DNA of 17,827 bases from a virus (taxonomy: Duplodnaviria > Heunggongvirae > Uroviricota > Caudoviricetes), in the IMG/VR virus record IMGVR_UViG_2563366903_000004. One strand, 5' to 3'. Shown here one piece after another: positions 1,623-17,827 of the stretch. The position numbers and the translations under genes are program-made. The notes below the pieces were generated by a model, which saw only the letters and a list, made by a program, of their open reading frames with translations, was not told where the DNA came from and made no database searches. Within the stretch, counting starts at the first letter, position 1; each line of letters begins with the position of its first letter.

Positions 1623-1817
1623 TTAAGAAGGTTGTTCCGGAATGAGTGGGGCTTCTGTTTTTGCTCCGGCTGACTGACTGGCGCTGATTTTCTCTGCGGC
1701 CCTTTTATCAATCTGCCTGCGCCAGAAATCGCGCACTGCCCTGTACCCACCCGAAAGAAGATACAGCACACAGACCGCCGTACAGAAGTACAGCATCACC
1801 TGATGAACAAATGTCAT
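1623..1817 (-). CDS. Small membrane protein (64 aa)
   Basis: ORF with ATG at 1815-1817; hydrophobic N-terminus (VMLYFCTAVCVLYLLSGG) followed by a basic tail; lies between the nanS-p-like gene and the holin on the late strand. Confidence 0.4.
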   Translation of the reverse strand: MTFVHQVMLYFCTAVCVLYLLSGGYRAVRDFWRRQIDKRAAEKISASQSAGAKTEAPLIPEQPS

Positions 1818-1914
1818 AGTTTCTTACCGTTATGGTTGACAATGAGAACTGTTTTCATTTAAAAAACCGATATACGAAAGCATCTTTTCTTTACATTCTC
1901 CATTGGGATTACCT

Positions 1915-1951
1915 CCGCCAGCTTCCGTTCCTGCCGCTGGCGGTTTTTTTT
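1915..1951 (+). terminator. Plus-strand intrinsic terminator abutting the nanS-p-like 3' end
   Basis: CCGCCAGC ... GCTGGCGG 8-bp GC stem (13-nt loop) followed by eight T on the plus strand; on the minus strand it follows the esterase stop codon but lacks a U tract. Confidence 0.5.
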
Positions 1952-1956
1952 GCCGG

Positions 1957-3939: not shown

Positions 3940-4132
3940 GGTTCTTTCCACCATCTGAAAAATAATTCTTTAAAATACCTGACATGTAATACAGAAAAAA
4001 CACAAAACCATACCTTAAATAAAAACCTCATCATCAAGCAGATATGCATGGGTAAACTACAAGACGAGATATAAACCACCCTGCATTTAAATAAACAATA
4101 AACAACATCAGAAAAATAATTCTGCTCTATGG

Positions 4133-4159
4133 TTTACATTCAAAAATATCATTTATACT
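4133..4159 (+). promoter_or_regulatory. Putative sigma70 promoter for the AT-rich moron gene
   Basis: TTTACA (4133-4138), 15-bp spacer, TATACT (4154-4159), ~40 nt upstream of the 4200 ATG; spacer length is suboptimal. Confidence 0.3.
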
Positions 4160-4199
4160 TTTCAGAACATCACCAGCAAGACATAAACAAGGAAACTAA

Positions 4200-4535
4200 A
4201 TGAAGTGGATTGTGATTGATACAGTTATCCAGCCATCATGCGGAATATCTTTTTCAGTCATATGGAGTAAAATAAAATTAATAATCTGGTATCAATCGGA
4301 TGCTTTCTTACCTCCTGAAAGTATATTTACACTGACTCACACAGGTATCATGCTCAATAACAAAGTGCTACCTGTAACCATTTACAACGTAGTACCATTC
4401 AATAAAAAATTCTGGAATTTAATCAAAAACAGCCAGGAATGCCCTACAAATACAGATAACGTATTGAATGAATGCTTTAATAACCGTTGCACTCTGCAAA
4501 TATGTCCTTATGGACTAAAACAACAAAGTCCATAA
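4200..4535 (+). CDS. Hypothetical protein (111 aa) in an AT-rich opposite-strand moron
   Basis: ATG at 4200 preceded by AAGGAAA; AT-rich composition unlike flanking phage DNA; Cys-containing, no obvious signal peptide; stop codon sits inside a perfect 12-bp inverted repeat (4505..4538). Confidence 0.4.
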
Positions 4536-4552
4536 GGAGTTTACTCACATCT

Positions 4553-4590
4553 GACAAAATCAATATAAACAGCCCCTCCGGAGAGGGGCT
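4553..4590 (-). terminator. Intrinsic terminator-like hairpin downstream of the GC-rich structured region
   Basis: Perfect 8-bp stem AGCCCCTC-cgga-GAGGGGCT (4571-4590), followed on the minus strand by a U-rich tail GUUUAUAUUGAUUUUG. Confidence 0.5.
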
Positions 4591-4830
4591 GGAGAGTGGC
4601 GCTATGTGCCATTGCATGGTGCCGGGTGCCTCCCGGTGAGTTCAGTATCAGCACCTGAACCCGCACAGAAAGGATAAGGGTCGGTGACAAAACACCAGTT
4701 GCTGATTGCCCCTCCGCACAGGGGGATTCACCATGCCAGTTTCTTTTAACAAACTCCCCGCAAACCAGACAACAGTCAACCGCCTGAATTGTGAGGCATT
4801 TAAAAATTTCAACGGGTAACTGATACCCTG

Positions 4831-4983
4831 CTAATCGCCTGATGCTTTCTTTTTCAGCAACGGGAAAGCAACAACCACCACACCCGCCACCAGCACACCG
4901 TCAGCCAGCACTGACATTATCCGGCTGCTGAAGTCCACCATCACCACCAGAAACAGCAGGAGCGCAACCACAGCCAGACGCAT
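4831..4983 (-). CDS. Small hydrophobic peptide (50 aa), possible membrane protein
   Basis: Hand-translated minus ORF MRLAVVALLLFLVVMVDFSSRIMSVLADGVLVAGVVVVAFPLLKKKASGD; starts 9 nt downstream of the TerB-like stop; below the ORF-track size cutoff; weak RBS. Confidence 0.25.
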   Translation of the reverse strand: MRLAVVALLLFLVVMVDFSSRIMSVLADGVLVAGVVVVAFPLLKKKASGD

Positions 4984-4991
4984 TTTTACCG

Positions 4992-5423
4992 TCACAGATG
5001 ATTCTCCAGACGAAGGCCCAGGACACCGGCAATCTCTTCCAGCACCTTGCGCTCTTCCGGCTCTATTTCGCCGTCTGCTTCGGCAATGGCCACCGCCACA
5101 TCCAGCACGTCTTCCGCTTCACGCGTATCGTGTTTCACATCCTCGATCTCACGTAACGCCGCTCGACGACCAATTTTAAAGTTCGTATCCAGCTGACCGA
5201 TAATGGTTGCGCTAATCGCATTAATTTCTGACGTAAACGCGGACAACGCAGGCTGGTTACGCAAGACCTGCTCGATCTTCGCTTTCTCTGAAGCCTCACA
5301 TTCACCATCTGCATAGGCCACCAGATAGGCAGCATTAATAACCGCCTGTGCCAGATCACGTTTCTCAAACTTTTTAATTTCCACTGCCGCTCGGCGGGCT
5401 TTTTTACCAAAAATACCAAACAT
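4992..5423 (-). CDS. TerB-like (tellurite-resistance family) protein
   Basis: Internal ATG at 5423 of ORF 4992..5495, with AAGGAA 7 nt upstream; MFGIFGKKARRAAVEIKKFEKRDLAQAVINAAYLVAYADGECEASEKAKIEQV... has the acidic/helical pattern of TerB-like proteins (recalled, not searched). Confidence 0.5.
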   Translation of the reverse strand: MFGIFGKKARRAAVEIKKFEKRDLAQAVINAAYLVAYADGECEASEKAKIEQVLRNQPALSAFTSEINAISATIIGQLDTNFKIGRRAALREIEDVKHDTREAEDVLDVAVAIAEADGEIEPEERKVLEEIAGVLGLRLENHL

Positions 5424-5554
5424 CGTGACGTTCCTTTGGGTGGGTGAGCCAACGCCCGGGAGCGATCTGCCCACAGAGAAAGTCACACTGACCACTCCGT
5501 AAGCTCACCCCCGAAAGGCTCTGTGGTTGATATGCGCCGGGCGTGGCGCAGATA

Positions 5555-5580
5555 CAAAAAAAGCCCGCCGAAGCGAGCCT
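5555..5580 (-). terminator. tR'-like intrinsic terminator downstream of Q
   Basis: Minus strand GGCTCGC-ttcg-GCGGGCT hairpin followed by seven T; ~150 nt downstream of the Q stop; a second GC palindrome (TGCGCC-N6-GGCGCA, 5532-5549) lies just beyond it. Confidence 0.6.
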
Positions 5581-5591
5581 GATAATAAATC

Positions 5592-5670
5592 TGGAGCGGG
5601 TAGCGGGAATCGAACCACGATAAGAAGGTTAACAGCCTTCCGTAATGACCTTTATACGACTGACCCAAAT
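5592..5670 (-). pseudogene. Degenerate tRNA-like element (tRNA relic) between Q and tR'
   Basis: Minus strand has a canonical T-arm/3' end (GGTTCGATTCCCGCTACCCGCTCCA) and a perfect anticodon stem-loop GAAGG-CTGTTAA-CCTTC (anticodon GTT) with a D-loop-like AAAGGTCA, but acceptor and T stems do not pair, so it is not an intact tRNA. Confidence 0.3.
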
Positions 5671-5729
5671 AAAAAAAGCCACCGTTGCAACTTAAGAGTC
5701 ACTAACGGCAGCTTACCCTCTAATTATGG

Positions 5730-6248
5730 CTAAATGGCTAATTGCATGTCAAGGCTTTTAACAGCAACATGCTTAACTTTCTCAACACGTTTACGCATTT
5801 TGAAAGCATTTTGCATTGGTTGGTACAAAACAAATAATGACGCTTTCAGGATATCGTCAATTTCGTTTCTACAGGTTGCCAGTGAAGGTTTTCTCCATCC
5901 CTCGCCACCGCGTCCACACATCTTGCGTGGCTTTGCAGTCGCGTGATAGTAGGATGCAATTGCTCTCTTAGATGAACCATGAGCGTAGTAGCTGAGGAGG
6001 ATGCCAAAGGCTTTCTTGTCAATGTACATGACGGAATCGACGACCTGAGAAATCAACATTCCATCATCATCATTACACATTGGTCTTGTCATAACTCTTC
6101 CCGGCTCTACGCTCTCCATGAACTTCGCTATTACGCTGCTCATGCGCTTTTCCAGACGACCTGAATAAACCCATGCGCCCCACAGTTCAAGCCAGCCATT
6201 CAGCCAATCGTGCTGTTCTTTGGTGAGGTTTAGTTCTCTTATGCCCAT
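5730..6248 (-). CDS. Q: Late-gene antitermination protein Q
   Basis: 172-aa ORF containing WGAW...C.DDD...LL.YY motifs recalled from lambdoid Q antiterminators; directly downstream of ninG and upstream of a tR'-like terminator. Confidence 0.75.
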   Translation of the reverse strand: MGIRELNLTKEQHDWLNGWLELWGAWVYSGRLEKRMSSVIAKFMESVEPGRVMTRPMCNDDDGMLISQVVDSVMYIDKKAFGILLSYYAHGSSKRAIASYYHATAKPRKMCGRGGEGWRKPSLATCRNEIDDILKASLFVLYQPMQNAFKMRKRVEKVKHVAVKSLDMQLAI

Positions 6249-6291
6249 GCGACTTCTCCCTTGTTATCTGGAATGGTTTTTACTGAGAGCG

Positions 6292-6897
6292 TCATGCGGC
6301 CTCACTTCTGCTGTTTCGCAGGTCTTTGAGTTTCTGTTGGTACTCTGCCTTGATGGCCCTGCACTCTTCGACAGTCCAGCGATGGCGGTTATGGTTTGAT
6401 TCGATTTCGTCTACTGCTTCCTGCCCGATGCGGCTAATCAGTTCGACGCGATACGGAACGAGATTTCCGCTTTTGTGCTGGTTGCACACCACGCATTGCT
6501 TGTGAATATTGCGTTCATCAAATCGGAGTTGAGGTGCCGCAGCAGTTGTCCGGTAATGTCCGGCATCCCACTGAGCAGACGTGAGCGTTCCGCACGAGAT
6601 ACATGGTAAGTCGCGGTCTCTTTCTCTGATGAAGGCGTTTACGGCTTGTTGGGCTTGTTTAATCCAGTAACTGCGGGGCTTTAAGGCGAGTTTTCGAATC
6701 TTCAGTTTATCTTTCTGTTTCTGCTCCTCTCGTCGTCGTTTCTTCTCTGCTGCTTTTTCCGCTTTTTCGCGTTCTTTACTTCGTCGTTCGAGTGCTAATT
6801 GAGTTCCGTGTTCCGGGCAGCACCACCACTGATTTGAGAATGCCGGGTGAAACCATTCTTTGCATATTTTGCATTTCCTTCGCGCTGGTTTAGCCAT
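6292..6897 (-). CDS. ninG: NinG/Rap recombination-associated endonuclease
   Basis: 201-aa [107 protein letters not shown]... is near-identical to recalled lambda NinG. Confidence 0.9.
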
Positions 6898-7625
6898 TAA
6901 GCAGCCTCCCCTGTTACTTTCAGCATTCCGTTATCGAGCAGCTTTCTGGTCAGCCACTGTTGACCACGTCCGGTGATTTTTGTGGTGAACGATATCTGTA
7001 TTCCGTGATTTGTGTTGACCGCTGTTTCTTTCACTGTGAAATAGCCGCGCTCCATATATTCCTGCATTGGCACATTTCGCCGGGAACCTGAAGCGATAAG
7101 GATTTTGTGATCGCGCATCCACGCAAACAGTTTGTTTGGACCAATTCCAACAACCTTTGCATAGTTTCCAATCAAAATTCCGCTGGCCTCGCCAACGCGA
7201 TCGGCAAACTCAACTTTAGGTGCTGCGAGAGCAAGCTGTTTCTCCAGTTCAGCCTTCTGGTCTTCAAGGTCGGCCGCAAGGCGCAATGCCTCAGAAAAGG
7301 TTTGTGGTATTTTCGCGGTTGCCCCTTCGAGTTCTCGCCAACGGTCAACAAGACGAGCGGTGAATTCCGGCGACAACTGAGCGACGACAATAATGCTGTC
7401 TCGCTTACCTTGTTCGCCTTCGAATATATACACGCTTGTGAATTTGTTAGGGCTAATTGTTTGTTTATTTTCAACTTTTTGCATTGGAGGAAGTTGAATC
7501 ACCCCACGCTTTGCCAGACGTTCTATTGATATTCTGACATTACCGTGTTGGCTTCCCACCAACTCAGCGATTTCAATGCTTGTCATTTTGATGACGTTGC
7601 TATTTATCAGCTCATTCATTGTCAT
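6897..7625 (-). CDS. Phage antirepressor-like protein (Rha-type N-terminal domain plus KilAC/Ant C-terminal domain; Roi-like)
   Basis: 242-aa ORF; N-terminal segment [22 protein letters not shown] resembles Rha; C-terminal region resembles the antirepressor KilAC domain; its stop overlaps the ninG start by 1 nt (TAATG). An alternative start at Met3 (7619) has better SD spacing. Confidence 0.65.
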
Positions 7626-7651
7626 GTCCTCTCATATTGAAAATTCAGCAA

Positions 7652-7675
7652 TAAAAAACCCAGCCGAAGCTGGGT
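7652..7675 (-). terminator. Intrinsic terminator between the ORF6N gene and the antirepressor gene
   Basis: Minus strand ACCCAGC-ttcg-GCTGGGT hairpin followed by TTTTTTATT; has A- and T-tracts on both sides, so may act bidirectionally. Confidence 0.65.
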
Positions 7676-7693
7676 TTGTTAAGTTGTCAATTG

Positions 7694-8377
7694 TCAGTAG
7701 CGATGCAGTGAAGGCGGCAACTCTTTGTTCTTAAGCCTTTCCCATGCCAGAAGGTTCGTCGGCCCGTCAGGCTCATAAATATCTATATCCCGCGTGTGAT
7801 TAATTAAAACGCCCCTCGCCCTCCCGATGATATACGAGAACTCATAGCCGTAGTCGTGGCATATGCCGGAATAGCCAGACTGAATCAGTTTTAATGCGGG
7901 ATACAACTCACGGAACAATGCCTGTGAGCGGTTGGCATAATCCCACAGCCATACAAGGCTGTCTGTTTCTTTTGCGGAAAGCCCGTTGGGCTTCTTCTCT
8001 TGTTTGCCAGTATTTTTCTCGCACTGGCTGAAATAGCAGTCTTCCAGTTTTTCGAACACTTCCCACGCCCGATCGGTTTCGAGCATTTTTGCATGACGGG
8101 CTGCGCCGCGTTCTGTCCATAGGATGAGGGAGCGAACGTTACGGGCAATTTTCACAGAGTAGTTAAAAGCTACTCTGTGCTTGAACTCACGTAAAGTTTC
8201 ACCTTCAAGTTTGAAGAAGTGTTTTTCCTCAATGAAACGACCTTTGTTTTCGTGGTGATTCTGGCGAATACGAATAGCTTCTGTGCCGTAAAGGTGCGCC
8301 AAAAGTTCGGTAGTGATAACGGGGATCTGCTTGTAAGTAATCGTGGAGAGTGTTTCAACAGAAACTTGAGTTGTCAT
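7694..8377 (-). CDS. ORF6N/KilA-N-type DNA-binding domain protein (227 aa) with an uncharacterised C-terminal half
   Basis: ATG at 8377 with GAGGG 7 nt upstream; N-terminal ~110 aa match the ORF6N pattern (recalled); the gene is bracketed by intrinsic terminators. Confidence 0.55.
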
Positions 8378-8536
8378 AATGACGCCCTCGAGTGGTTTCT
8401 AAACTATCACCACCGTCAGGTTCCTAATCATCGGGTGGCGAGACGTACAGGGTTAGGAACTACCGGGAAACCAACCGGCGAGCTTTTCAGCTCCCCTATA
8501 CGCCCCACCATAATTCAGATGTGCGTGTGCATACGA

Positions 8537-8561
8537 CAATAAAAAACACGCTCGCGGCGTG
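8537..8561 (-). terminator. Intrinsic terminator between ninE and the ORF6N cassette
   Basis: Minus strand ACACGC-cgcga-GCGTGT hairpin followed by TTTTTTATT. Confidence 0.55.
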
Positions 8562-8654
8562 TCTCTGTCGCGGTTTCTATCCGGGGTTCCTAATCCCGAC
8601 GCCAGATTTTGCTGGCGCGTGAGGAATATAGCCCCGAATAAATCATCACGTCAA

Positions 8655-8837
8655 TCACCTTGTTTTCCTCGCACGATGTCTTAGCCACCGGATATCCCAC
8701 AGGTGAGCCGTGTAATTGAAGGTTTTAACGTCAGATTCTTTTGGGATTGGCCTGGGTTTATTTCTGGAGCGTTTCGTTGGAAGGTATTTGCAGTTTTCGC
8801 AGATGATGTCGGTGATACTTCGTCGCTGTCGCCTCAT
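8655..8837 (-). CDS. ninE: NinE
   Basis: Internal Met of ORF 8655..8927 gives the 60-aa [60 protein letters not shown], near-identical to recalled lambda NinE; ATGA overlap with the upstream methyltransferase stop. In this stretch my reading of the printed sequence and the ORF-track frame disagree by 1 nt; track coordinates are used. Confidence 0.8.
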
Positions 8838-9361
8838 GCCGCCCTCCTGACGCCCTGCCCGATCGCCATCAATGCCGCTTTGGATACGGTAGTAAACATC
8901 CGTCGAGGACTGATGAACGGTCGCCAAATCAGCAGCATGGAACCTTTGCTGTTTCCCTTCTTCTCCAGCCCTGTCGATGGTTCGATAAAATTAATCCGTC
9001 CATCAGTGATGATGCGAACTTCGTCAACACTCTCCAGAGCCTTACTGAACCATCCGACAGACATATCCTCTGGCACAAGCATCACTACCGTCTGTCGTTG
9101 TTGTATGCACTGCTCAGCGGCTTTTTCCACCCACGGCCTGATATTGCTGTACGGTGGGTTATTCCAGATTGCACCGTGGCTTACCCACTCAGAATTGAGC
9201 GCGTCGTCGGCCTCAGTTAGCCAGTGAGCACACAGAGCATTTTTGTCGCTCGCTGCCGAATCCAGCCAGAATCCAAACTCAATATCCAGTGCATCAAAAA
9301 GCCAAAGCGGCGTTTGCCAGCAGTCCTTGTCGTGTGCTGGCGTATTTGATTTGATAGTCAT
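8834..9361 (-). CDS. Phage DNA N6-adenine methyltransferase (Dam-like)
   Basis: Start taken at the internal ATG 9361, which overlaps the ninB stop as ATGA; [59 protein letters not shown]...[11 protein letters not shown] has the NPPY catalytic motif of N6-adenine methyltransferases. Confidence 0.8.
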
Positions 9362-9804
9362 GCAGCCTTCCCTTTTCGTTGTGACCATTCATACTCTCGC
9401 CAGGAGTCATCACTCCACCGCACGTTGCGCTCTGAGCCGAACCAGAACATGATTTCGATAAGCTCAGTCATGCTGGCCTTCCGCATTTTGCTGGTGCGCA
9501 CACCAAGCATGACAACGCCACCGCCGATACCAGGCGCACTTCGTTGCTCCAGTTTTTTGGTCTTAAGCCACAGGGCAGTGAACAGGTCTTTCCAGTCTTC
9601 CGGCGCCAGCCGTTGACCATGCCATAGCACCTGACGCGAAACATCGTTCAGCATCGGCCACATACGGTCATTCTGCGCTTTGCTACGCTTGGGTTCTTTA
9701 ACGTGGACTTCGTGGGGTGACTTGTCGTCGATGGGTAGTGAGAGAATGGCGTCTATGGCGTTATTTCTGATTGCTTCGTTGCGAAGCAGAAAGGTTTGCT
9801 TCAT
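9358..9804 (-). CDS. ninB: NinB (Orf) recombination mediator
   Basis: Internal ATG at 9804 of ORF 9358..9906; MKQTFLLRNEAIRNNAIDAILSLP...DVSRQVLWHGQRL...WSDDSWREYEW aligns along its length with recalled lambda NinB. Confidence 0.85.
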   Translation of the reverse strand: MKQTFLLRNEAIRNNAIDAILSLPIDDKSPHEVHVKEPKRSKAQNDRMWPMLNDVSRQVLWHGQRLAPEDWKDLFTALWLKTKKLEQRSAPGIGGGVVMLGVRTSKMRKASMTELIEIMFWFGSERNVRWSDDSWREYEWSQRKGKAA

Positions 9805-9997
9805 CTCCTGCTCTCCGGTTCCATTTTTCAGCCGCCGCAGCAACTGATGGTGCCCACGCCCCCCTGGCTTCACAGAGGTCACATTCTGCATAGCCCCACA
9901 CATCAATATTTATTCCGGCCTCAACCCACAGACGAGCATTACCGCCGCAAAACGGACATTCTTTTAGCTTTGGCTGGGTTAATGATAGGTCGCTCAT
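9761..9997 (-). CDS. Lar-family restriction-alleviation-like protein (zinc-finger)
   Basis: ATG at 9997 with a strong GAAGGAG RBS; KECPFCGG...ECDLCEARGAW...WNRR matches the Cys motif pattern recalled for Lar family proteins; C-terminus overlaps the ninB start by 44 nt. Confidence 0.45.
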   Translation of the reverse strand: MSDLSLTQPKLKECPFCGGNARLWVEAGINIDVWGYAECDLCEARGAWAPSVAAAAEKWNRRAGDEANLSASQRSNQK

Positions 9998-10007
9998 GCT
10001 CACTCCT

Positions 10008-10223
10008 TCACTTTAAATCCAGACTCCGGATAATTCTGTTGCGCTGAAACTCATTGTTGAGTTTGAACAACCGTCGAAGAACACGGTCACGCGGATAGCG
10101 TCGTGCGGCAGGTGAATGCTCATACAACTCATCAAGCGGCAAACTGGACGATGAACGATACCGATACCAACGCACCAACTCTTCACGAAAATTAGCCCTG
10201 ACAAGCTCAGCTATCGTACTCAT
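10008..10223 (-). CDS. Hypothetical basic protein (71 aa)
   Basis: ATG at 10223 with GGAGG 9 nt upstream; occupies the position where lambda has ninB, immediately after the tR2-like terminator. Confidence 0.45.
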   Translation of the reverse strand: MSTIAELVRANFREELVRWYRYRSSSSLPLDELYEHSPAARRYPRDRVLRRLFKLNNEFQRNRIIRSLDLK

Positions 10224-10251
10224 TTCTTAAAGCCTCCAATTACTCTTCCCC

Positions 10252-10282
10252 AAATAAAAAGGCCTGCGATTACCAGCAGGCC
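10252..10282 (-). terminator. tR2-like intrinsic terminator downstream of ren
   Basis: Minus strand GGCCTGC-tggtaatc-GCAGGCC followed by TTTTTATTT; matches the lambda tR2 sequence as I recall it. Confidence 0.75.
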
Positions 10283-10308
10283 TGTTACAAGCTCAGTGAT
10301 GTAGATGG

Positions 10309-10599
10309 TCATCTTTTAACTCCATATACCGCCAATACCCGTTTCATCACTGCACTCTGGCGACACTCCTTAAAAATCAGGTTCGTGCTCACCTTTCCTT
10401 CCCGTTCTTCCCTGGTAGCAAACCGGTAATACACCGTTCGCCAGACCTTACCATCAATGACAAGGATTCCTGCCCGCGCCATTTTAGCCGCAGCCTGATT
10501 TATACTGGTTACGGTTGCGCCTGTTACCGCGGAAACGTCCTGTGCACAGAAGTTCTTATGCGCCCCGAGGTAATGAATAATTGCCTCTTTGCCCGTCAT
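10309..10599 (-). CDS. ren: Ren
   Basis: 96-aa ORF MTGKEAIIHYLGAHKNFCAQDVSAVTGATVTSINQAAAKMARAGILVIDGKVWRTVYYRFATREEREGK... is near-identical to recalled lambda Ren; ATGA overlap with the P stop. Confidence 0.85.
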   Translation of the reverse strand: MTGKEAIIHYLGAHKNFCAQDVSAVTGATVTSINQAAAKMARAGILVIDGKVWRTVYYRFATREEREGKVSTNLIFKECRQSAVMKRVLAVYGVKR

Positions 10600-11297
10600 A
10601 CACTTGCTCCTTTCAGTCCGAACTTAGCTTTAATTTCTGCGATCTTCGCCAGAGCCTGTGCTCGATTTAGAGGTCTGCCGCCCATGACAGGAAGTTGTTT
10701 TACTGGTTCAGGTATCGTCTCACCACGGTTAATTCGTGCTGTCATACAGGTCAGTTCATCGGCAGCCTTGCGCCGTAATTCCGCGTCAGTCAGCGCATTG
10801 GCCCGCATGTTCTGGTACAGGTTGGTAACCAGCCAGTAGTGCGCGTTTGATTTCCACGGATAAGACTCTGCATCCGGATACAGGCCACGCTTCCGGCAAT
10901 ACTCGTAAACCATATCAACCAGCTCGCTGACGTTTGGCAGTCCGGCGATAACGGATGCTTCTTCCCGGCACCATGCAACAAACTGCCCGGGTGATGGAAG
11001 AAATGGTCGATTCTGCCGACGGGCTACGCGCATTCCTGCGTTAACCTGTTCCATCGAGGTGATCCCGTTTTCCCGGAAAGCCAGAACCCACTGGCGGCGG
11101 ATTTCATTCAGTTCGTTCTGGCCCCGGTTAGCCAGACTCGCCGGGAAAGTTGCCAGTAACTGGCTGAACACACCGTTGATGATCTGCGCTACCTGTTGTA
11201 CCTGCGGCTTTTCGTCGTACTGTTCCGGCATGTTGTTGGCGATCCGACGCATCTGCTCACGGTCAAAGTTAACCATCTGTGCGGCGATGTTTTTCAT
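10596..11297 (-). CDS. P: Replication protein P (DnaB helicase loader)
   Basis: 233-aa ORF MKNIAAQMVNFDREQMRRIANNMPEQYDEKPQVQQVAQIINGVFSQLLATFPASLANRGQNE... is near-identical along its length to recalled lambda P. Confidence 0.95.
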   Translation of the reverse strand: MKNIAAQMVNFDREQMRRIANNMPEQYDEKPQVQQVAQIINGVFSQLLATFPASLANRGQNELNEIRRQWVLAFRENGITSMEQVNAGMRVARRQNRPFLPSPGQFVAWCREEASVIAGLPNVSELVDMVYEYCRKRGLYPDAESYPWKSNAHYWLVTNLYQNMRANALTDAELRRKAADELTCMTARINRGETIPEPVKQLPVMGGRPLNRAQALAKIAEIKAKFGLKGASV

Positions 11298-11965
11298 AAA
11301 TCCACCCCGTAAATCCAGTCAGTGTTTGTCAGGTCGAGTTTTGGTTTGCTGGCTGTCACGCCTGCCTGTTGCTTGTTACGGTTGATTTCGAGCTGGGTCC
11401 ACTTGTCGCGGAGTTTGGCCGGACTCAGCACGTTACCGGACCAGAAGTTGTCCTGGCAGGCCCAGCGGAAAAGCACACACATATCGCGGTGGTTACGTCC
11501 GTCACGTTCACGCATCAGGCGGATATCGTTAGCCCACCCTGCAAAATTCGGTTTTCTGGCTGATGGTGCGATGGTCTTCACCATGTCAAACATCCACTCT
11601 GCGGCGGTCAGGTCTTCTGCTGTTCCCCACTTGCTGCCGCTCTGAATTGCAGCATCCGGTTTAACCACAGAAAGATCGTTTTCTGGCTGGTCAGAGGATT
11701 CGCCAGAATTCTCGGACGAATAATCTTTTCTTTTTTCTTTTGTAATAGTGTCTTTTGTGTCCCCCTGTTTTGAGGGATAGCAATCCCCTAATTTGAGGGA
11801 TGTTTTATCCCTCGTTTTAGGGGGGGTTCCCTCGTTTTGAGGGATGTCCCTCATTTTAGGGGAACCTCCCTCGTTTTGAGGGATGCACCATTCTGAGATG
11901 TTTTTATTTGGTCCAAACATGCCGCCTTGCTGCTTGATAATATTCATTCTGACGAGTTCTAACTT
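11294..11965 (-). pseudogene. O: Replication initiator O, C-terminal portion (gene split by IS insertion)
   Basis: Frame continues from the IS junction (AAG TTA GAA CTC GTC AGA ATG AAT ...) into MNIIKQQGGMFGPNKNISEW...TNTDWIYGVDL, matching recalled lambda O residues ~91-299; contains the ori iterons. Confidence 0.85.
11761..11882 (-). repeat. Lambda-type origin of replication: six iteron-like repeats (TCCCTCAAAACGAGGGA on the coding strand), with an adjacent AT-rich unwinding region at ~11700-11760
   Basis: Six copies of ccctc(g/a)ttt(t/a)gaggga-like 16-18-mers at ~19-23-bp spacing inside the O coding remnant, followed by an A/T-rich tract (cttttcttttttcttttgtaatagtgtcttttgtg). Confidence 0.75.
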
Positions 11966-12007
11966 TGAACCGCCCCGGGTTTCCTGGAGAGTGTTTTATC
12001 TGTGAAC

Positions 12008-12898
12008 TCAGGCTGCCAGATCATCGTTTCCGATGGAAGCATAATAAGCTTTTTCTGCTTCTGCCGGAGGAGTATGGCCCAGCCTTTCCAGCAATCGTCG
12101 ATTGTTATACCAGTCCACCCACGTGAGTGTGGCCAGTTCCACTTCTGCACGGTTTTTCCAGCTCTTACGGTGTATTACCTCCGCTTTGTAAAGACCATTG
12201 ATGCTCTCCGCCATCGCGTTGTCATACGAATCGCCTGTACTTCCTGTTGATGCCAGTAATCCGGCTTCCTTAAGCCGCTGTGTGTAGGCCAGCGATACAT
12301 ACTGAGAACCTTTATCACTGTGATGGACCGTGCCGGACGGTCGACGGGCCCATAACGCCTGCTCCAGTGCATCCAGCACGAATGTCGTCTCCATGGACGA
12401 TGAGACCCGCCACCCCACAATGTATCCGGCAAACACATCAATGATGAACGCCACATAGACGAAGCCCTGCCATGTGCTGACGTAAGTAAAATCAGCCACC
12501 CACAGCTGGTCAGGTCGTTCTGCCACGAACTGACGGTTTACGCGGTCGCCTGCGGCAACGGCTTTCCGGCTGATGGTCGTACGGACCTTTTTACCCCGGA
12601 GAACACCGGCAAGTCCCATAACCGCCATGAGACGTGCCACAGTGCATCTGGCCACTCTGATACCTTCCCGTAACAACTGACGCCAGACTTTACGCACACC
12701 GTATACCTTGTGATTTTCATCGTATACGCGCTGTATCTCTTTCTTCAGCCAGTCATCGCGCTGCGCACGGGCACTGCGTTTATCCGGATGATATCGCTGT
12801 TGCTGACAGTGGTAATACGTTGACGGGGCAATATGCAGTTCGCTGCATAGCGGTCCGACCCCGTACTGCTCACGCAGCTTATCCAGCAGTGGCATCAT
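12008..12898 (-). CDS. IS3-family transposase OrfB (DDE catalytic domain)
   Basis: 296-aa ORF; recalled as the IS629 OrfB sequence; normally expressed as an OrfAB fusion by -1 frameshift. Confidence 0.9.
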
Positions 12899-13221
12899 TT
12901 TTTCCAGAGGCGGTCGAACTCCGCCTTCGCAAAATAAGCGGAAGCCTGGCGAAGGATATCGTTACTGCGGCGCAGTTCACGATTTTCACGCTCCAGCTCT
13001 TTCAGACGCTGACGTTCAGCGGTGGTGAGCCCTCCATCACCGCCCCCGGTATCCCGCTCATGCTGGCGAACCCAGACACGCAGAGTCTCCGGCGTACAGC
13101 CAATCTTTGGAGCAATGGAACAAATTGTCGCCCATTGTGAGTCATATTCGCCCTGACTTTCCAGAACCATACGGACTGCCCGTTGACGGACTTCAGGGGA
13201 AAAACGAGTATTTTTAGTCAT
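12895..13221 (-). CDS. IS3-family transposase OrfA (HTH domain)
   Basis: 108-aa [60 protein letters not shown]...; ends in an A-rich run (TGG AAA AAA TGA) overlapping the OrfB start, consistent with a programmed -1 frameshift site. Confidence 0.9.
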
Positions 13222-13272
13222 CCTGTTTACCTCTTTCTCAGGAAGTTTAGTCTCCAGGATTCCCGGGGCGGT

Positions 13273-13545
13273 TCACTTGGCTTCATTGCACCGTTTGACA
13301 GGTAACTTTGTAATCTCGCTAAGTTGAGAATCGGTGATTCTGTCCATTGGTTTATTCCACCCATAGGTTTTACGCAGAATGGCAAGCAGCACTTTAAACT
13401 GTCGCTTGGTCAGATCTGCGCCTGAATAAGCCTCAATCAGCATATTTGATAGTCTGGCGTAACCATCATCGAGATCTGCCACATTACGCTCCTGTCCGGC
13501 AAAGTTACTTCTGCCGAAGTTGAGTATTTTTGCTGTATTTGTCAT
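13273..13545 (-). pseudogene. O: Replication initiator O, N-terminal 90 codons (truncated by the IS629-like insertion)
   Basis: MTNTAKILNFGRSNFAGQERNVADLDDGYARLSNMLIEAYSGADLTKRQFKVLLAILRKTYGWNKPMDRITDSQLSEITKLPVKRCNEAK matches recalled lambda O 1-90; the stop codon is supplied by the IS end (TGAACC). Confidence 0.85.
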
Positions 13546-13577
13546 AATGACTCCTGTTGATAGATCCAGTAATGACC

Positions 13578-13877
13578 TCAGAATTCCATCTGGATTTGTT
13601 CAGAACGCTCGGTCTTGCACACCGGGCGTTTTTTATTGGTGAGTTCATCAAGCGCATACTTAAAAGCCCTGCTAATCGGACTGATGTCTGATGCCATTCC
13701 GAAAGCACACAAGACCGAAGCAATAAATCTCCAGTCCGTTCTGCTTATCTTCGATTCATGACAGCCAATCATCTTTGCCAGACCGCGCTGGGTAAGCGTT
13801 GACAGGTTGATGAGTAAATCCGTTTCTGCGCGATCAACGTCGCGCTGGGATAGTTTGCTGTAACTTGTTTGTGTCAT
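13578..13877 (-). CDS. cII: CII-like transcriptional activator
   Basis: 99-aa ORF whose C-terminus LTNKKRPVCKTERSEQIQMEF matches the recalled lambda CII C-terminus; the N-terminal DNA-binding part is divergent; positioned between cro and O. Confidence 0.7.
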   Translation of the reverse strand: MTQTSYSKLSQRDVDRAETDLLINLSTLTQRGLAKMIGCHESKISRTDWRFIASVLCAFGMASDISPISRAFKYALDELTNKKRPVCKTERSEQIQMEF

Positions 13878-13887
13878 TTCTTAATAT
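13855..13887 (+). promoter_or_regulatory. Candidate PRE-like CII-dependent promoter overlapping the cII start
   Basis: TTGC-N6-TTGT (13855-13868) resembles the lambda CII box TTGC-N6-TTGC and overlaps the first cII codons as in lambda; TAATAT -10 candidate at 13882-13887, oriented toward cI. Confidence 0.3.
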
Positions 13888-13962
13888 TTCCAATAGTGAA
13901 TAGTTAGTTGAAAGGTATGCGTGGAAACGCATATGGCCTTAGTTGGTCAGATATCTTGGGGC

Positions 13963-13977
13963 TCGCTTTGTCAGCGA
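13963..13977 (-). promoter_or_regulatory. Candidate nutR boxB hairpin
   Basis: Minus-strand CTACG-TCGCT-GACAA-AGCGA between cro and cII; same core (CTACGnCGCTGACAAAGCG) as the hairpin upstream of N. Confidence 0.45.
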
Positions 13978-14015
13978 CGTAGGACGAATGTCCATTGTGA
14001 AAATAGCGGTGTTAC

Positions 14016-14243
14016 TTATGCAGCCAGAAGGTTCTTTTTGCTTATTTCAAGCATTTCGCTTGCTTGATATTTGCCACCAGAAATCTCTTCGATTTTTGAT
14101 GCGTATTTCGTTTTCCCAAAAAACTCAGTCTTAGGGAGGAAGCCGTTTTTGAGCCACTTATAGACAGCCCTTTCGCTAACTCCACAAGCCTTCGCAACTT
14201 CAGGGATGCCGACACCTTTAATCGGCTCATCAAGATTTTGCAT
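14016..14243 (-). CDS. cro: Cro-like repressor (HTH)
   Basis: Internal ATG at 14243 with AAGGA 7 nt upstream; 75 aa with an HTH segment (GIPEVAKACGVSERAVYKWLKNG); divergent from cI across the operator region. Confidence 0.7.
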   Translation of the reverse strand: MQNLDEPIKGVGIPEVAKACGVSERAVYKWLKNGFLPKTEFFGKTKYASKIEEISGGKYQASEMLEISKKNLLAA

Positions 14244-14321
14244 AGGGATATCCTTTTTCGTACTTTCAGTACGCATTATGATTGAACTGAAAGTTTTTGC
14301 AAGTGCTTTAGTATCGTACTC
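14244..14321. promoter_or_regulatory. cI-cro intergenic operator/promoter region (OR-like) with three palindromic sites and divergent PR/PRM candidates
   Basis: Palindromes CGTACTttcAGTACG (14259-14273), AACTgaaAGTT (14285-14295), AGTAtcgTACT (14310-14320); PR candidate on minus strand: -35 TTGCAA (14297-14302), 16-bp spacer, -10 CATAAT (rc of 14275-14280); PRM candidate on plus strand: -10 TAGTAT (14309-14314) ending 7 nt before the cI ATG. Confidence 0.6.
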
Positions 14322-15029
14322 ATGGTTCAGAATGAAAAAGTGCGCAAAGAATTCGCCCAGCGGCTAGCGCAAGCCTGTAAAGAAGCTGGTCTTGATGAAC
14401 ATGGTAGGGGAATGGCTATAGCCCGTGCCCTTTCTCTTTCGTCCAAAGGCGTTAGCAAATGGTTTAATGCTGAGTCTTTACCGCGTCAGGAAAAAATGAA
14501 TGCGCTTGCGAAATTTCTAAACGTTGATGTTGTTTGGCTTCAGCACGGCACTTCGTTAAATGGAGCGAATGATGAAGATACTCTTTCATTTGTTGGCAAA
14601 TTAAAAAAAGGGTTAGTGCGCGTGGTTGGTGAGGCAATTCTTGGTGTTGATGGTGCCATCGAGATGACCGAAGAGCGCGATGGGTGGCTCAAAATTTATA
14701 GCGATGATCCAGATGCCTTTGGTCTTCGTGTGAAAGGAGACAGCATGTGGCCCAGAATAAAATCAGGAGAATATGTACTCATTGAGCCTAACACCAAAGT
14801 ATTTCCGGGGGATGAGGTGTTTGTCAGAACTGTTGAAGGACACAACATGATCAAAGTTCTTGGCTATGACAGAGACGGAGAATACCAATTTACAAGCATC
14901 AACCAGGACCACAGGCCAATAACGTTGCCTTATCATCAAGTAGCAAAGGTGGAGTATGTGGCTGGTATTCTGAAGCAATCTCGCCATCTGGATGACATCG
15001 AGGCAAGGGAGTGGCTGAAAAGTTCGTGA
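14322..15029 (+). CDS. cI: CI prophage repressor (HTH N-domain plus S24 LexA-like autopeptidase C-domain)
   Basis: 235-aa ORF; C-domain has the GDSM serine-nucleophile motif (RVKGDSMWPRI) and a downstream Lys (MIKVLG); no SD before the ATG and a -10-like TAGTAT ends 7 nt upstream, suggesting a leaderless PRM-type transcript as in lambda. Confidence 0.85.
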   Translation: MVQNEKVRKEFAQRLAQACKEAGLDEHGRGMAIARALSLSSKGVSKWFNAESLPRQEKMNALAKFLNVDVVWLQHGTSLNGANDEDTLSFVGKLKKGLVRVVGEAILGVDGAIEMTEERDGWLKIYSDDPDAFGLRVKGDSMWPRIKSGEYVLIEPNTKVFPGDEVFVRTVEGHNMIKVLGYDRDGEYQFTSINQDHRPITLPYHQVAKVEYVAGILKQSRHLDDIEAREWLKSS

Positions 15030-15111
15030 CTTCATCGTCACATAGCTGGTAACCAGTGGCCTGAAGAGACGTTTGGGTGATGTACATAGCATTTCTGGAT
15101 AAAAATACAGA

Positions 15112-15153
15112 TTCCCTTTATGGGAAATGAATCTATAATTCCCAAAGAGGGAA
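15112..15153 (+). promoter_or_regulatory. Promoter/operator region of the HigB-like operon: two TTCCC-N5-GGGAA palindromes flanking a TATAAT -10 element
   Basis: TTCCCtttatGGGAA (15112-15126), TATAAT (15134-15139), TTCCCaaagaGGGAA (15139-15153); no good -35 hexamer found. Confidence 0.5.
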
Positions 15154-15165
15154 CAAAATCGGATT

Positions 15166-15453
15166 ATGAAGGTCTTAAACGTAGAGAGGCTTCACAGTTT
15201 TAGCCGGAAGCACAATCAGGCCAAGGGGGCTTTAGACTCTTGGTATGATGAAGTGATAAGAGAAAACTGGAAAACGACTCAAGACATACGGAATAGATTT
15301 AATTCTGCCGACTTCCTTCCTAACAACAGGGTAATTTTTAATATAAAAGGCAATAACTATCGGCTCGTTGTCCAAGTTGTTTACCAGGCAGGAATGGTCA
15401 TAGTTGAAAGAGTTGGAACTCATGCAGAGTACGACAAGTGGAGGCTTAAATGA
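15166..15453 (+). CDS. HigB/RelE-superfamily toxin-like protein (95 aa)
   Basis: C-terminal half FNIKGNNYRLVVQVVYQAGMVIVERVGTHAEYDKW matches the HigB pattern (recalled E. coli HigB ...FNVGGNELRVVAMVFF...IREVMTHKEYD); toxin-first order as in higBA; stop overlaps the next start (ATGA). Confidence 0.65.
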   Translation: MKVLNVERLHSFSRKHNQAKGALDSWYDEVIRENWKTTQDIRNRFNSADFLPNNRVIFNIKGNNYRLVVQVVYQAGMVIVERVGTHAEYDKWRLK

Positions 15454-16106
15454 ATCGAACTAGCTGGCGCATCATTAAAAATAGTGAAGAGCATGCTGCA
15501 GCTATGGAAAGGCTCATTGAACTTGCGTCTAGTGATTTACAACCTGGAACTGAAGATTTTGATGAGTTTGAACTACTAGGCTTGCTTATCGAGCACTATG
15601 AGTCACGCGAGTTCCCTATGGACAAGCCAGATCCCATAGAAGCAATCAAGTTCCGTATGGATCAACAAGGCCTCTCTTATGCCGATATGAAACAATACAT
15701 TGGCTCAGCATCTAAAGTATCTGAGGTCTTAAATCGTAAGCGTCCATTAAGTCTTTCAATGATCCGTAGACTACATGACGGACTTGGAATTCCTGCAGAT
15801 ATCTTAATTCAAGATATGAGCGCAATTGAATGGAGCCTAGTTGACGCAGAGGAAGAAGAAACAGCCATGACTAGCGTCATTGCTCGGTGTGAGTCAGCCG
15901 TCACATCACCTTCTGCTTATTTCGCTGAAAAGGCTACAGAATCTTACTTTTCAAAAATGTTGTTCAGCGCAGTAAGGGGTAATGGCAAATGCAAAGAAAA
16001 ACGGAATGTTTTTTCTTTGATAAGTAACTTGTCATCAAGTTTCACAGCGGCTAGCAACCTGAATGACGAAATGACTTCTGACGGAAATTACTTATTATTA
16101 CCATGA
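15450..16106 (+). CDS. HigA-like XRE-HTH antitoxin with ~90-aa C-terminal extension (candidate chaperone-addiction domain)
   Basis: 218 aa; residues ~60-130 (SKVSEVLNRKRPLSLSMIRRLHDGLGIPADILI) resemble the HigA HTH region (recalled ...VSRVLSGKRKLTLEHAKKLATRFGISPALFI); extra C-terminal tail absent from canonical ~100-140-aa HigA; ATGA overlaps at both ends. Confidence 0.6.
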   Translation: MNRTSWRIIKNSEEHAAAMERLIELASSDLQPGTEDFDEFELLGLLIEHYESREFPMDKPDPIEAIKFRMDQQGLSYADMKQYIGSASKVSEVLNRKRPLSLSMIRRLHDGLGIPADILIQDMSAIEWSLVDAEEEETAMTSVIARCESAVTSPSAYFAEKATESYFSKMLFSAVRGNGKCKEKRNVFSLISNLSSSFTAASNLNDEMTSDGNYLLLP

Positions 16107-16507
16107 AAATTGAACTCATTAGCAAAAAAGTTGAACGCTTGGTTATGACACGGCTAGAAGGCGATTCAACAGCAAAAAAAGCCATAAAAACAACCGTTAA
16201 TCTAAATAATGAACTTTACACTAATGTGAAGGATTCAAAGCTATTTAGAGTGAGATATTTTGCCTCCGTAACTATTGAAGGCAGGCTTGAGATGGACATC
16301 ACATACGACTTTGACTTCCGGTCAGAAGATGATTTTTCTCATGAAATGGCAAAATCATATGAGGTAAGGTCCATTGCTCCCAATATGGCATATCCCTATA
16401 TAAAAACATATGCCGAGCAAATTATCCTCATGTCAAACCTTGGTAGGTTCACTCTGCCTTATTTTGATTTCTTGGCCAATCCCATGGAAACGAACAGTAA
16501 TAAGTGA
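16103..16507 (+). CDS. SecB-like chaperone candidate (134 aa), third gene of the module
   Basis: C-terminal block APNMAYPYIKTYAEQIILMSNLGRFTLPYFDF resembles the E. coli SecB block [33 protein letters not shown] (recalled); ATGA coupling to the antitoxin gene; intrinsic terminator immediately downstream. Confidence 0.5.
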   Translation: MKIELISKKVERLVMTRLEGDSTAKKAIKTTVNLNNELYTNVKDSKLFRVRYFASVTIEGRLEMDITYDFDFRSEDDFSHEMAKSYEVRSIAPNMAYPYIKTYAEQIILMSNLGRFTLPYFDFLANPMETNSNK

Positions 16508-16516
16508 AATTCCCCA

Positions 16517-16542
16517 CCCGGCCTCAGCGCCGGGTTTTCTTT
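16517..16542 (+). terminator. Intrinsic terminator after the SecB-like gene (tImm-like)
   Basis: CCCGGC-ctcagc-GCCGGG hairpin followed by TTTTCTTT, starting 10 nt after the stop codon. Confidence 0.7.
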
Positions 16543-16825
16543 GCCTCACGATCCCCCACCTAAAAAAACATAACCATTTGTATTTATAGATGTAACTCGC
16601 TAAACCATGCAGTTCTGATCCCTGCCGCATAACCTTCATCAGCCACATTTTCAAAAATAAATTTCCTTATATATCAGAATCATACTTCGTAGAGTTAATA
16701 AATCACCAAAATTCGTACCAATAGTTCTTGATAATGTCGAACTATTGGTTCATCATTATCGTCATCAGCAGGACGCATTACTCACCAGGGCGGTGAATAT
16801 ACAACGATTCGAATATGAATCTACG

Positions 16826-16840
16826 GCGCTGACAAAGCGC
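16826..16840 (+). promoter_or_regulatory. Candidate nutL boxB hairpin
   Basis: GCGCT-GACAA-AGCGC stem-loop preceded by CTACG, ~170 nt upstream of the N start codon. Confidence 0.5.
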
Positions 16841-17005
16841 AATAACCAAAGTGAACTTTGGGGTGTGGTGAAGGGTTCATGGACGGGAATATGTCGCACG
16901 TAAAGCGGCGAGGCCTGCGGGACTATTGCCGAATTGAAGTAGGCCGAAACAGGTCGAAATGGGTCTCCCACCTACCACACCACCAAAGTTCATCAGGAGG
17001 TCTAT

Positions 17006-17389
17006 ATGACACGCAGAACTCAGTTCAAAGGCAATTCACGTTCTCGTCGTCGTGAGCGTTTAAAGGCAAAGGCATTAGCTAACTGCGTACTGGCCCGCGA
17101 AGAAGCAATAAGTTCAGAAGTATTACACCGCCCTACTCTAAGCAGAGCGCAGATTCAGGCTAAAGGTACTCACGAAACGCCTGAGCGCATAGAAGACGCT
17201 AAGCCAATTAAGTTCATTGCACAGGACGTGATCTGGCAACAGAAAGAATACAGACGCAATCTGGAGCGAGCAGCCATTGTGTACGCGAATGAGTTTGGAC
17301 ATAAGCAACCAGAAACTGGTGTATGTCTTCCAAACGTAGCCATTTACGCGGCAGGCTACCGGAAATCAAAACAACTGACGGCAAGATGA
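17006..17389 (+). CDS. N: Antitermination protein N
   Basis: 127-aa ORF with an N-terminal arginine-rich motif (MTRRTQFKGNSRSRRRERLKAK); GGAGG RBS 7 nt upstream; candidate nutL boxB hairpin ~170 nt upstream. Confidence 0.85.
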   Translation: MTRRTQFKGNSRSRRRERLKAKALANCVLAREEAISSEVLHRPTLSRAQIQAKGTHETPERIEDAKPIKFIAQDVIWQQKEYRRNLERAAIVYANEFGHKQPETGVCLPNVAIYAAGYRKSKQLTAR

Positions 17390-17827
17390 CTTGTGTTGGT
17401 CGCCAGAAAATGAAATTAGGCAGCAAACCACTTATTTGAGGACTGATACATGAGAGTAAAAACATGGGCACAAGCCCATTAAGTGGTCGTATTTTTCAAG
17501 GAACATTAAACACTGAAAAAGGAATGTGGGTAGGAAAAAAAAGAAGATGACACCGAACAGGCAGTTAAGGCAGTAGCCGAACACCTGATGATAAAAGACC
17601 AGAAATATGCATACGAAACGAAGGATGGCAAATGGCTGATAATAAGCCATCAACTGGTTGATAAATTACCAGAAGAGTTTATTGCTGGTTAAATTCACTT
17701 TGGAACAAATAACAGAATAAACACTGCACTGTGTATTCATTCCAACGAGTGAATACACGGAGCAATGTCGCTCGTAACTAAACAGGAGCCGACTTGTTCT
17801 GATTATTGGAAATCTTCTTTGCCCTCC

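Follow-up and report, generated by a model that had tools for sequence, protein, structure and literature searches.

Prophage context and the interrupted O gene

The window, by which we mean the whole 17,827-nucleotide stretch of DNA analysed, comes from the E. coli assembly GCA_000408105.1. It carries part of a prophage that adjoins mlrA/yehV and is an mlrA-linked, stx-negative relative of the Stx1a phages. The left edge of the window directly follows a 300-N gap in the scaffold, which cuts the endolysin gene, and the late region is found on a different scaffold. The prophage retains int, exo/bet/gam, N, cI, P, and Q. Full-length products with complete Pfam matches are encoded by cI, N, Q, and the holin gene, in agreement with an earlier note on this DNA, which had described cI, N, and Q as intact. 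The note had also described the lysis genes as intact; with the endolysin gene cut by the gap, this is supported for the holin gene only. In the module that the note called TAC-like, a label best taken as putative, one gene encodes a HigB toxin and another an HTH protein, whereas the third had no Pfam match. The sole lesion in the 17.8-kb window is an insertion sequence (IS) that divides the replication gene O. The features at the locus are as follows.

10596-11297, minus strand: gene P, 233 amino acids (Phage_lambda_P, Pfam E=8e-61), its start overlapping the O stop (ATGA)
11294-11965, minus strand: O 3' fragment, codons 90 (duplicated)/91-312, Phage_rep_O profile positions 71-95
11761-11884: six origin iterons of ~18 bp (TCCCTCNTTTTGAGGGA type) within the O 3' fragment, evident as palindromes and as the repeat families D1 and D2
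11963-11965: target-site duplication, left copy, CTT by direct reading (minus-strand AAG, codon 90 of O)
11966-13275, minus strand (transposase genes): IS629 isoform, exactly 1310 bp, its direction shared with O and pR transcription
11966-11990: IRR, the terminal inverted repeat at the orfB end, which starts TGAACCGCCCCGGG and matches the reverse complement of 13251-13275 at 23/25 positions
12008-12898, minus strand: orfB, 296 amino acids, rve integrase core (Pfam E=5e-28)
12824-12940, minus strand: ALIL frameshift pseudoknot RF01497 (Rfam 120.2 bits, E=5e-32; gathering score 50)
12895-13221, minus strand: orfA, 108 amino acids, HTH_Tnp_1 (Pfam E=6e-13)
13251-13275: IRL, the terminal inverted repeat at the orfA end, which supplies with its three outermost bases the TGA at which truncated O ends
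13273-13545, minus strand: O 5' fragment, codons 1-90 and a stop contributed by the IS end, with a match to positions 2-70 of the 95 in the Phage_rep_O profile (E=8e-25)
13276-13278: target-site duplication, right copy, CTT by direct reading

The insertion described in the earlier note, a clean one after codon 90 with a 3-bp AAG/CTT duplication, is correct to the base. The upstream O fragment (MTNTAK...KRCNEAK) is exactly 90 amino acids in length before it meets the stop in the IS, and the downstream fragment resumes as LELVRMNIIKQQ. The downstream fragment lacks its own start codon; internal ATGs occur at codon 96 (11947) and codon 127 (11854). A look-up of a 217-amino acid internal-start product of this fragment found no recorded match. 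That of a 186-amino acid internal product returned chiefly metagenome contigs beginning within the iteron region rather than at the IS junction, along with one IS66-family insertion. O is thus disrupted, as had been claimed: the 90-amino acid stub and the start-less 3' fragment together amount in effect to a null allele.

The IS629-type element and its relatives

The element begins TGAACCGCCCCGGG... and ends ...CCCGGGGCGGTTCA, and its imperfect inverted repeats match at 14/14 of the first 14 bases. Its termini (TGAACC...GGTTCA) have the TG...CA form of the IS3 family, and its length falls within the 1.2-1.55 kb of that family. OrfB contains the triad D136, D195, and E231, that is, a DD(35)E arrangement, with a lysine at E+7 as in IS3-family transposases. 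Relative to orfA, orfB is in the -1 phase, a frame that stays open from position 12961 onward; the gene call of the source record gives an OrfAB fusion of 404 amino acids. A slippery T4G motif (12934-12930) lies inside the ALIL pseudoknot, and an A6T run (12903-12897) provides a second candidate site. Chen and Hu (2006) are said to have found both T4G and A4T functional in IS629 frameshifting. In length and ends, in overlapping orfA and orfB with a -1 signal, in the DD(35)E motif with its lysine, and in the 3-bp duplication, the element therefore has every feature examined of an IS3-family member. The 1310-bp length, imperfect repeats, and A-rich frameshift site (the A6T run) that the earlier note had read from the DNA all held, and the T4G motif and pseudoknot were found in addition.

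The full-length element is 99.8% identical to copies in E. coli O145:H28 (two mismatches in 1310), where a single genome can hold as many as 40 such copies. It is 99.4% identical over 1310 bp to a copy on the Shigella sonnei plasmid CP104427.1. The name IS629, which calls for >90-95% full-length identity, is applied by proxy through this S. sonnei plasmid copy, rather than through the ISfinder/X51586 type sequence; on this basis, the earlier assignment to an IS629-type element is upheld. The element shares with the IS629/IS1203/IS3411 isoform group its 1310-bp length, TG...CA ends, imperfect repeats of ~25 bp, 0/-1 phases, ALIL pseudoknot, T4G motif and A-run, DD(35)E triad, and 3-bp duplication. 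By contrast, it stands ~4% apart from the IS1203-type copies (named IS1203-family by PGAP) that dominate in O157:H7, with ~96% identity and 53-54 of 1310 bases differing. This distance places it in a Shigella/O26/O145-like subtype, and not in the O157 subtype I of Rump et al. (PMC3271280). With both ORFs and both ends intact, and as a member of the multi-copy O145:H28 family, it is predicted to be an active isoform.

Among 5,426 complete E. coli genomes, 3,043 (56%) carry IS629-type elements, as do 3,392 plasmids. At this frequency the element is no marker of an EHEC or Shigella background, and the suggestion that it points to an EHEC O157/Shigella-like origin falls. IS629 does favour prophages, in which 62% of its copies in O157 are located (PMC3271280).

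The restored O protein and its origin

In silico deletion of the IS and one CTT copy yielded an O reading frame of 939 bp and 312 amino acids, which has 99% amino acid identity to phage lambda O plus a 13-amino acid insertion. The restored gene aligns from 1 to 939 in a single piece (99.5% DNA identity) to intact O in 1,313 E. coli genomes, and is 99.1% identical at the DNA level in phages BP-4795 and P27 and in Stx phages. Alignment of the flanks to an intact lambda-type O had been put forward as a check on the insertion, and the single-piece match over 939 bp confirms that it is clean. The joined fragments complete the Phage_rep_O domain, the iterons lie mid-gene, P overlaps the end of O, and the protein is close to lambda O in sequence; all of these are characteristics of a lambda-type O. 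A PDB sequence search with restored O gave no match at E<=1.

The six-iteron origin and gene P are left untouched by the IS. The iterons lie 81 bp from the IS end and adjoin an A/T-rich tract (~11700-11757). The O genes of P27 and 933W have 13 extra residues and six iterons (PMC7466680), and by alignment restored O carries the equivalent 13-residue, two-iteron extension.

Within the coding sequence, the IS cuts Phage_rep_O (PF04492) at profile position 70/71 of 95, and this domain is complete only when the two fragments are joined. Comparison with the O of a second prophage in GCA_000408105.1, which has an identical immunity region and an intact O, puts the module boundary at the iterons, at residues ~120-156: the two O proteins are ~45% identical before the iterons and nearly identical after them, with one substitution. 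The earlier note had the IS separating an iteron-binding N-terminal domain from a P-interacting C-terminal domain, and this is refuted by the positions of the cut and the boundary. On the evidence of Pfam, the mosaic comparison, and older literature, the insertion is inside the N-terminal origin-binding domain. The domain specificity of lambdoid O proteins was reportedly established by Furth and Yates, by Zahn and Blattner, and by Wickner and Zahn. Both the N-terminal domain of the second prophage's O and its iterons differ from those of the window prophage, so trans-complementation of the window origin by this O is predicted to be unlikely. Copies of O with lambda specificity number up to five per E. 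coli genome, and a third prophage encoding one could complement in trans.

Recurrence and interpretation of the insertion

The identical O::IS629 junction was absent from the 5,426 complete E. coli genomes, in which all full-coverage junction matches were in two pieces, with the IS at a different position. Nor was it found in GTDB species representatives, IMG/VR, or JGI metagenomes. The allele was seen in two assemblies only, GCA_000408105.1 and, as a contig end, GCA_039691735.1. Other IS629-type insertions into lambda-type O, in the same gene and orientation as the window IS, were found in O157:H7 F6294, in O145:H28 RM12761 and RM13516, in strain 124, and in MS 119-7. They lie 29-46 bp from the window site or at the gene start. 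The 3-bp duplications differ: TAG (O nucleotides 224-226), GTT (240-242), and TTA just before the ATG in these others, and AAG (268-270) in the window. In RM12761, unlike in the window, most of O and the origin have also been lost through an adjacent deletion. RefSeq labels the O pieces as partial replication-protein pseudogenes, the one exception being the upstream O piece of strain 124, given as a normal CDS. Four independent sites, spread over no more than 46 bp or located at the gene start, thus occur in several lineages. A speculative reading is that IS629 favours codons 76-90 of lambda-type O and that prophages are repeatedly immobilised in this way.

Disruption of prophage genes by these elements has been documented through experimental phenotypes in two instances, IS629 in the phiPA2 methyltransferase gene (PMC10810198) and stx2::IS1203v, for which precise excision has also been documented (bioRxiv 10.1101/2023.06.07.543989); in contrast, the O::IS629 allele here is known from sequence alone.

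The explanation we favour, at a probability of roughly 0.88, is that a predicted-active IS629 isoform transposed into O of a lambda/Stx-type prophage and created an O null allele, as a recent event without sign of selection. The element would have moved by copy-out-paste-in through a circular intermediate, as in the IS3 family generally, and generated the 3-bp duplication. The insertion signature cannot be a product of chance. The IS is two bases from the O145:H28 copies, the split O reading frame has no visible decay, and the allele is missing from all 5,426 complete genomes; together these mark the event as recent, in which case intact neighbouring genes are expected.

Loss of O abolishes initiation at ori-lambda. 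The most likely consequence of the insertion, as the earlier note had soundly concluded, is thus loss of self-replication by the prophage. Upon induction, the prophage would be de-repressed and its own origin would fail to fire, while excision and N/Q-dependent expression may still take place. Replication could be regained only through an O of lambda specificity supplied in trans, through precise excision of the IS, or through exchange of the O/ori module by recombination. The anatomy of the locus, the clean insertion, the intact IS, and the place of the cut in the domain are shown directly; the replication defect, polarity effects, and these rescue routes are inferred. The lesion differs from the point mutations of lambda O amber and other O-defective prophages in being an insertion, in principle both polar and reversible. 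In O157, other prophages are known to bring about the amplification, packaging, or rescue of defective ones (PMC2669165). The prophage may also have carried further defects beforehand, in which case the O lesion would have no consequence.

The earlier note had proposed instead a domesticated prophage, immobilised by the knock-out of O and retained by the host for its cargo. Candidates for such cargo are the HigB module, TerB, a NanS-p esterase, and a ParDE-like pair. A replication-dead prophage would be less lethal when induced and could benefit the host, and a lone lesion among full-length regulatory and accessory genes fits such a history. However, near-identity of the IS to its O145:H28 relatives and the undecayed reading frame point to recency rather than purifying selection. 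An allele confined to two assemblies is also not an old lesion fixed by vertical descent, and a prophage that retains int, exo/bet/gam, N, and Q does not have the accumulated lesions, within the window, of a worn-down cryptic prophage. We therefore regard domestication as distinctly unlikely, and the proposal is not supported by these observations.

Another alternative builds on the shared orientation of O and the IS and supposes a reversible switch: on induction, read-through from pR into orfA/orfAB would raise transposase levels, and precise excision with the IS-excision enhancer IEE, if the genome encodes it, would restore O in a subpopulation. The 3-bp duplication is intact and the flanks are undamaged, so exact restoration of O is possible. 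Precise excision of IS629/IS1203v scales with the level of OrfAB, is ~10^5-fold higher in an O157:H7 than in a K-12 host, and has reactivated both stx2 and, in other work, lacZ (bioRxiv 10.1101/2023.06.07.543989; PMC9397093). Even with over-produced OrfAB, however, excision reaches only ~10^-3 (bioRxiv 10.1101/2023.06.07.543989), and the window insertion is indistinguishable from any random IS629 hit. The switch is accordingly highly improbable. The related notion of an induction-coupled lock, in which most cells are replication-dead and a few are recoverable through IEE-assisted excision, is very unlikely.

A misassembly, in which the scaffolder misplaced an IS copy into O of this gapped short-read assembly, scarcely merits belief and is rejected: the perfect duplication and the in-frame restoration of 312 amino acids are a signature of transposition and not of a misjoin, GCA_039691735.1 independently has a contig end at the identical base after 270 identical nucleotides of O, similar insertions stand 29-46 bp away in RefSeq complete genomes, and two stretches of the window that jointly span it, 1-10945 and 3273-17827, match the source scaffold at 100% identity.

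A recent transposition into O is a known kind of event, a real but ordinary IS629 hit that raises no new question. For annotation, the two O fragments are best treated as one pseudogene. The mlrA-linked, stx-negative prophage should be scored as replication-defective in cis despite its complete regulatory genes. The insertion adds a further example of IS629-type elements repeatedly striking the lambda-type replication module.

Anatomy of the insertion in gene O

The element is 1310 bp in length and occupies positions 11966–13275, as determined by reading of the window and by scripted dissection. Its termini are TGAACCGCCCCGGG... and ...CCCGGGGCGGTTCA, and its inverted repeats match at 14 of the 14 outermost bases and at 23 of 25 in total. 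The insertion after codon 90 with a 3-bp duplication described in the earlier note proved exact: CTT is found at 11963–11965 and again at 13276–13278, and the 5' O frame on the minus strand (MTNTAK...KRCNEAK) terminates past codon 90 at a TGA supplied by the outermost IS bases. The O frame picks up beyond the IS as LELVRMNIIKQQ. Removal of the IS and one CTT yields an uninterrupted ORF of 939 bp (312 amino acids). This restored O aligns with intact annotated replication-protein genes from position 1 to 939 as a single piece with a 939-bp span, which confirms a clean insertion. Its identity is 99.5% in complete E. coli genomes (1,313 of which contain at least 80% of restored O), and the O genes of phages BP-4795, P27, and several Stx phages match it at 99.1%. 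The insertion is real and cleanly resolved, and the case, a known IS in a known gene, is already known in kind.

The target is an O gene of the lambda/Stx type: apart from a 13-residue insertion, its restored product shares 99% identity with phage lambda O, and six iterons lie within the gene (11761–11884). In both respects it agrees with O of the Stx phages P27 and 933W, which has 13 extra residues and six iterons (PMC7466680). The Pfam domain Phage_rep_O (95 positions) is divided between the 90-amino acid stub (2–70) and the start of the downstream fragment (71–95), and the break therefore lies inside the N-terminal DNA-binding domain. A second lambdoid prophage in the source assembly has an O protein that is ~45% identical to restored O from residue 1 to ~125 and nearly identical, with one substitution, from ~residue 157 on; its iterons are of a different type (GGTGACA...TGTCACC). 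This jump in identity, along with the differing iterons, places the domain junction at the iterons rather than at codon 90. The earlier proposal that the IS parts the N-terminal iteron-binding domain from the P-interacting domain was thus wrong in detail, as Phage_rep_O itself is cut at 70/71. The conclusion that no functional O remains stands, and is if anything stronger.

The element carries two overlapping reading frames.

13221–12895, minus strand: orfA, 108 amino acids, HTH_Tnp_1 match
12898–12008, minus strand: orfB, 296 amino acids, rve, HTH_21, and rve_3 matches

Relative to orfA, orfB is in phase -1, in a frame that stays open from 12961. The catalytic residues of OrfB are D136, D195, and E231, with 35 residues from the second D to E and a K at seven past E. 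An ALIL frameshift pseudoknot (Rfam) is found at 12824–12940 (120 bits vs a gathering score of 50), with a T4G motif (12934–12930) under the 5' end of the model. The A-rich site of the earlier note, an A6T run (12903–12897) at the orfA stop, is a second candidate frameshift site. Chen and Hu reportedly found in 2006 that both motifs are functional in IS629. The gene call in the source record fuses both frames into a 404-amino acid product. These features mark the element as an intact IS629 isoform.

Relationship and age of the insertion

The IS is 99.8% identical to copies in O145:H28 strains (2 bases different), which hold such copies at up to 40 places per chromosome, and 99.4% identical to a Shigella sonnei plasmid copy; identity to O157:H7 IS1203-type copies is ~96% (53–54 mismatches). 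IS629 subtypes diverge by 4–5%, with the O157 majority IS1203-like and others nearer Shigella or O26 elements (Rump et al., PMC3271280). The window copy is a member of the non-O157 IS629 group. Among 5,426 complete E. coli genomes, 3,043 carry an IS629-type element (at least 80% coverage), as do 3,392 plasmids from several genera. Such an element is therefore no marker of EHEC or Shigella, and the EHEC/Shigella-like host earlier deduced from it is unsupported. Prophages are the preferred location of IS629, accounting for 62% of O157 copies (PMC3271280), and its disruption of phage genes changes phage behavior (PMC10810198).

The identical O::IS junction was absent from 5,426 complete E. coli genomes, GTDB representatives, IMG/VR, and JGI metagenomes. 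The 90-amino acid O stub is recorded in two assemblies. Contig ABSGOX010000143.1 of the unrelated assembly GCA_039691735.1 stops exactly at the base where the IS joins O; over 270 nt of O (5105–5374) it is identical to the window, but its cI/immunity region differs from the window's. This suggests either that recombination carried the same O::IS allele into another prophage background or that the site was hit twice. The two-base difference from the O145:H28 copies and the absence of decay in the split O ORF point to a recent insertion. Intact neighboring genes are the expectation of a recent event and are no evidence of domestication, leaving the idea of a prophage retained for its cargo unsupported.

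Other O genes have been hit by related elements, with examples already present in RefSeq, as seen in a survey that could detect one orientation only. The duplication in the window is AAG at O nt 268–270, compared with TAG at nt 224–226 in O157:H7 F6294, GTT at nt 240–242 in strain 124, and TTA directly before the O ATG in MS 119-7. In O145:H28 RM12761 and RM13516, the IS is flanked by partial O pseudogenes; the junctions of RM12761 show an upstream junction as in F6294, an IS of the IS629 subtype, and an adjacent deletion. The TAG junction is common to two different IS subtypes. Independent IS629/IS1203-type insertions near O codons 76–90 (window 13230–13300), found in other E. coli lineages, may reflect a local target preference. 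An IS66-family element (tnpA/tnpB/tnpC) lies directly upstream of the same 186-amino acid O 3' fragment as in the window, in a contig from another sample (Logan SRR31216190, 84–2669), and other IS families therefore also break the gene.

The prophage and its surroundings

The window is 100% identical to scaffold KE136876.1 of GCA_000408105.1 (4631–22457) over two compared stretches that jointly span it. A 300-N scaffold gap (10946–11245 of the source-scaffold stretch, L009) directly precedes window position 1 and cuts the endolysin gene to 82 codons. Past the gap on the late-gene side are an antirepressor, Rz, a ParD/ParE-like pair, and a KilA-N gene, after which the scaffold stops. Due to this gap and the scaffold end, this assembly does not show whether the lysis and late regions are intact. 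The other side of the prophage has cIII, kil, gam, bet, and exo, followed by an integrase adjoining mlrA/yehV.

Full-length genes in the window include cII, a cro-like gene, cI (HTH and S24 peptidase), N, Q, holin, a NanS-p-type esterase, and TerB. No stx or tRNA gene was found across the window. The prophage is most similar to Stx1a phages and stx-negative prophages (65–73% coverage), and is a stx-negative relative of yehV-integrated Stx1a phages.

4200–4535, opposite strand: PmrD-like gene
4992–5495: TerB, in the stx1-equivalent region
15166–16507, plus strand: three-gene module between cI and N (HigB-family toxin, 95 amino acids; HTH protein, 218 amino acids; 134-amino acid protein)

The stx1 site of the relatives, between Q and the NanS-p esterase (window 3955–5700), holds only TerB, a DUF3927 gene, and the PmrD-like gene. 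The 134-amino acid protein has no Pfam match and matches only a PHROG of unknown function, leaving the TAC-like (toxin-antitoxin-chaperone) label of the earlier note unverified. A promoter-like site (TTGAGT-17-CATAAT) occurs within the O start region, with a strong terminator-like hairpin (13602–13632) 3' of it and antisense to the cII end; the two (together 13520–13632, plus strand) sit where lambda has pO-oop-tO. Small differences between the two prophages concentrate at 13537–13712.

Expected consequences and routes of rescue

Lambda replication needs O on its own iterons, recruiting P-DnaB. With O absent, the origin should stay unfired even though the origin and P are intact. The stub retains the O N-terminus without the last quarter of Phage_rep_O. 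The 3' fragment is without its own start; it has internal ATGs at codons 96 and 127, the latter called as the start of a 186-amino acid gene, and products from either would be without the binding domain. The IS is oriented in the direction of pR. N-modified transcription can probably traverse it to reach P, the nin region, and Q, such that late genes may still be expressed at the level of a single copy. P-to-O translational coupling would be lost. The effect of the insertion is predictable, and we infer it on these grounds.

The second prophage adjoins yecE-like, MAPEG, and cmoA/B-like genes, and differs in recombination genes, the O N-terminal domain, and iterons. Its cII-cro-cI-HigB module-N segment (scaffold KE136894.1, about 6710–10822 of stretch L016) has no differences over window 13713–17827 (4.1 kb), and the cI protein is identical. 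The alternatives are a homoimmune double lysogen whose prophages recombined with each other very recently, or an assembler-resolved repeat. Because this segment is 100% identical, the second prophage would be co-induced; complementation by its O is unlikely due to the other specificity. Precise excision of IS629/IS1203v depends on the level of OrfAB and is greatly raised by IEE (PMC9397093; bioRxiv 10.1101/2023.06.07.543989). In O157 Sakai, defective prophages are rescued via other prophages (PMC2669165). A double crossover across the flanks common to both prophages (4.1 kb identical on one side, 1.5 kb 98.8% identical on the other) could bring in a working O/ori module.
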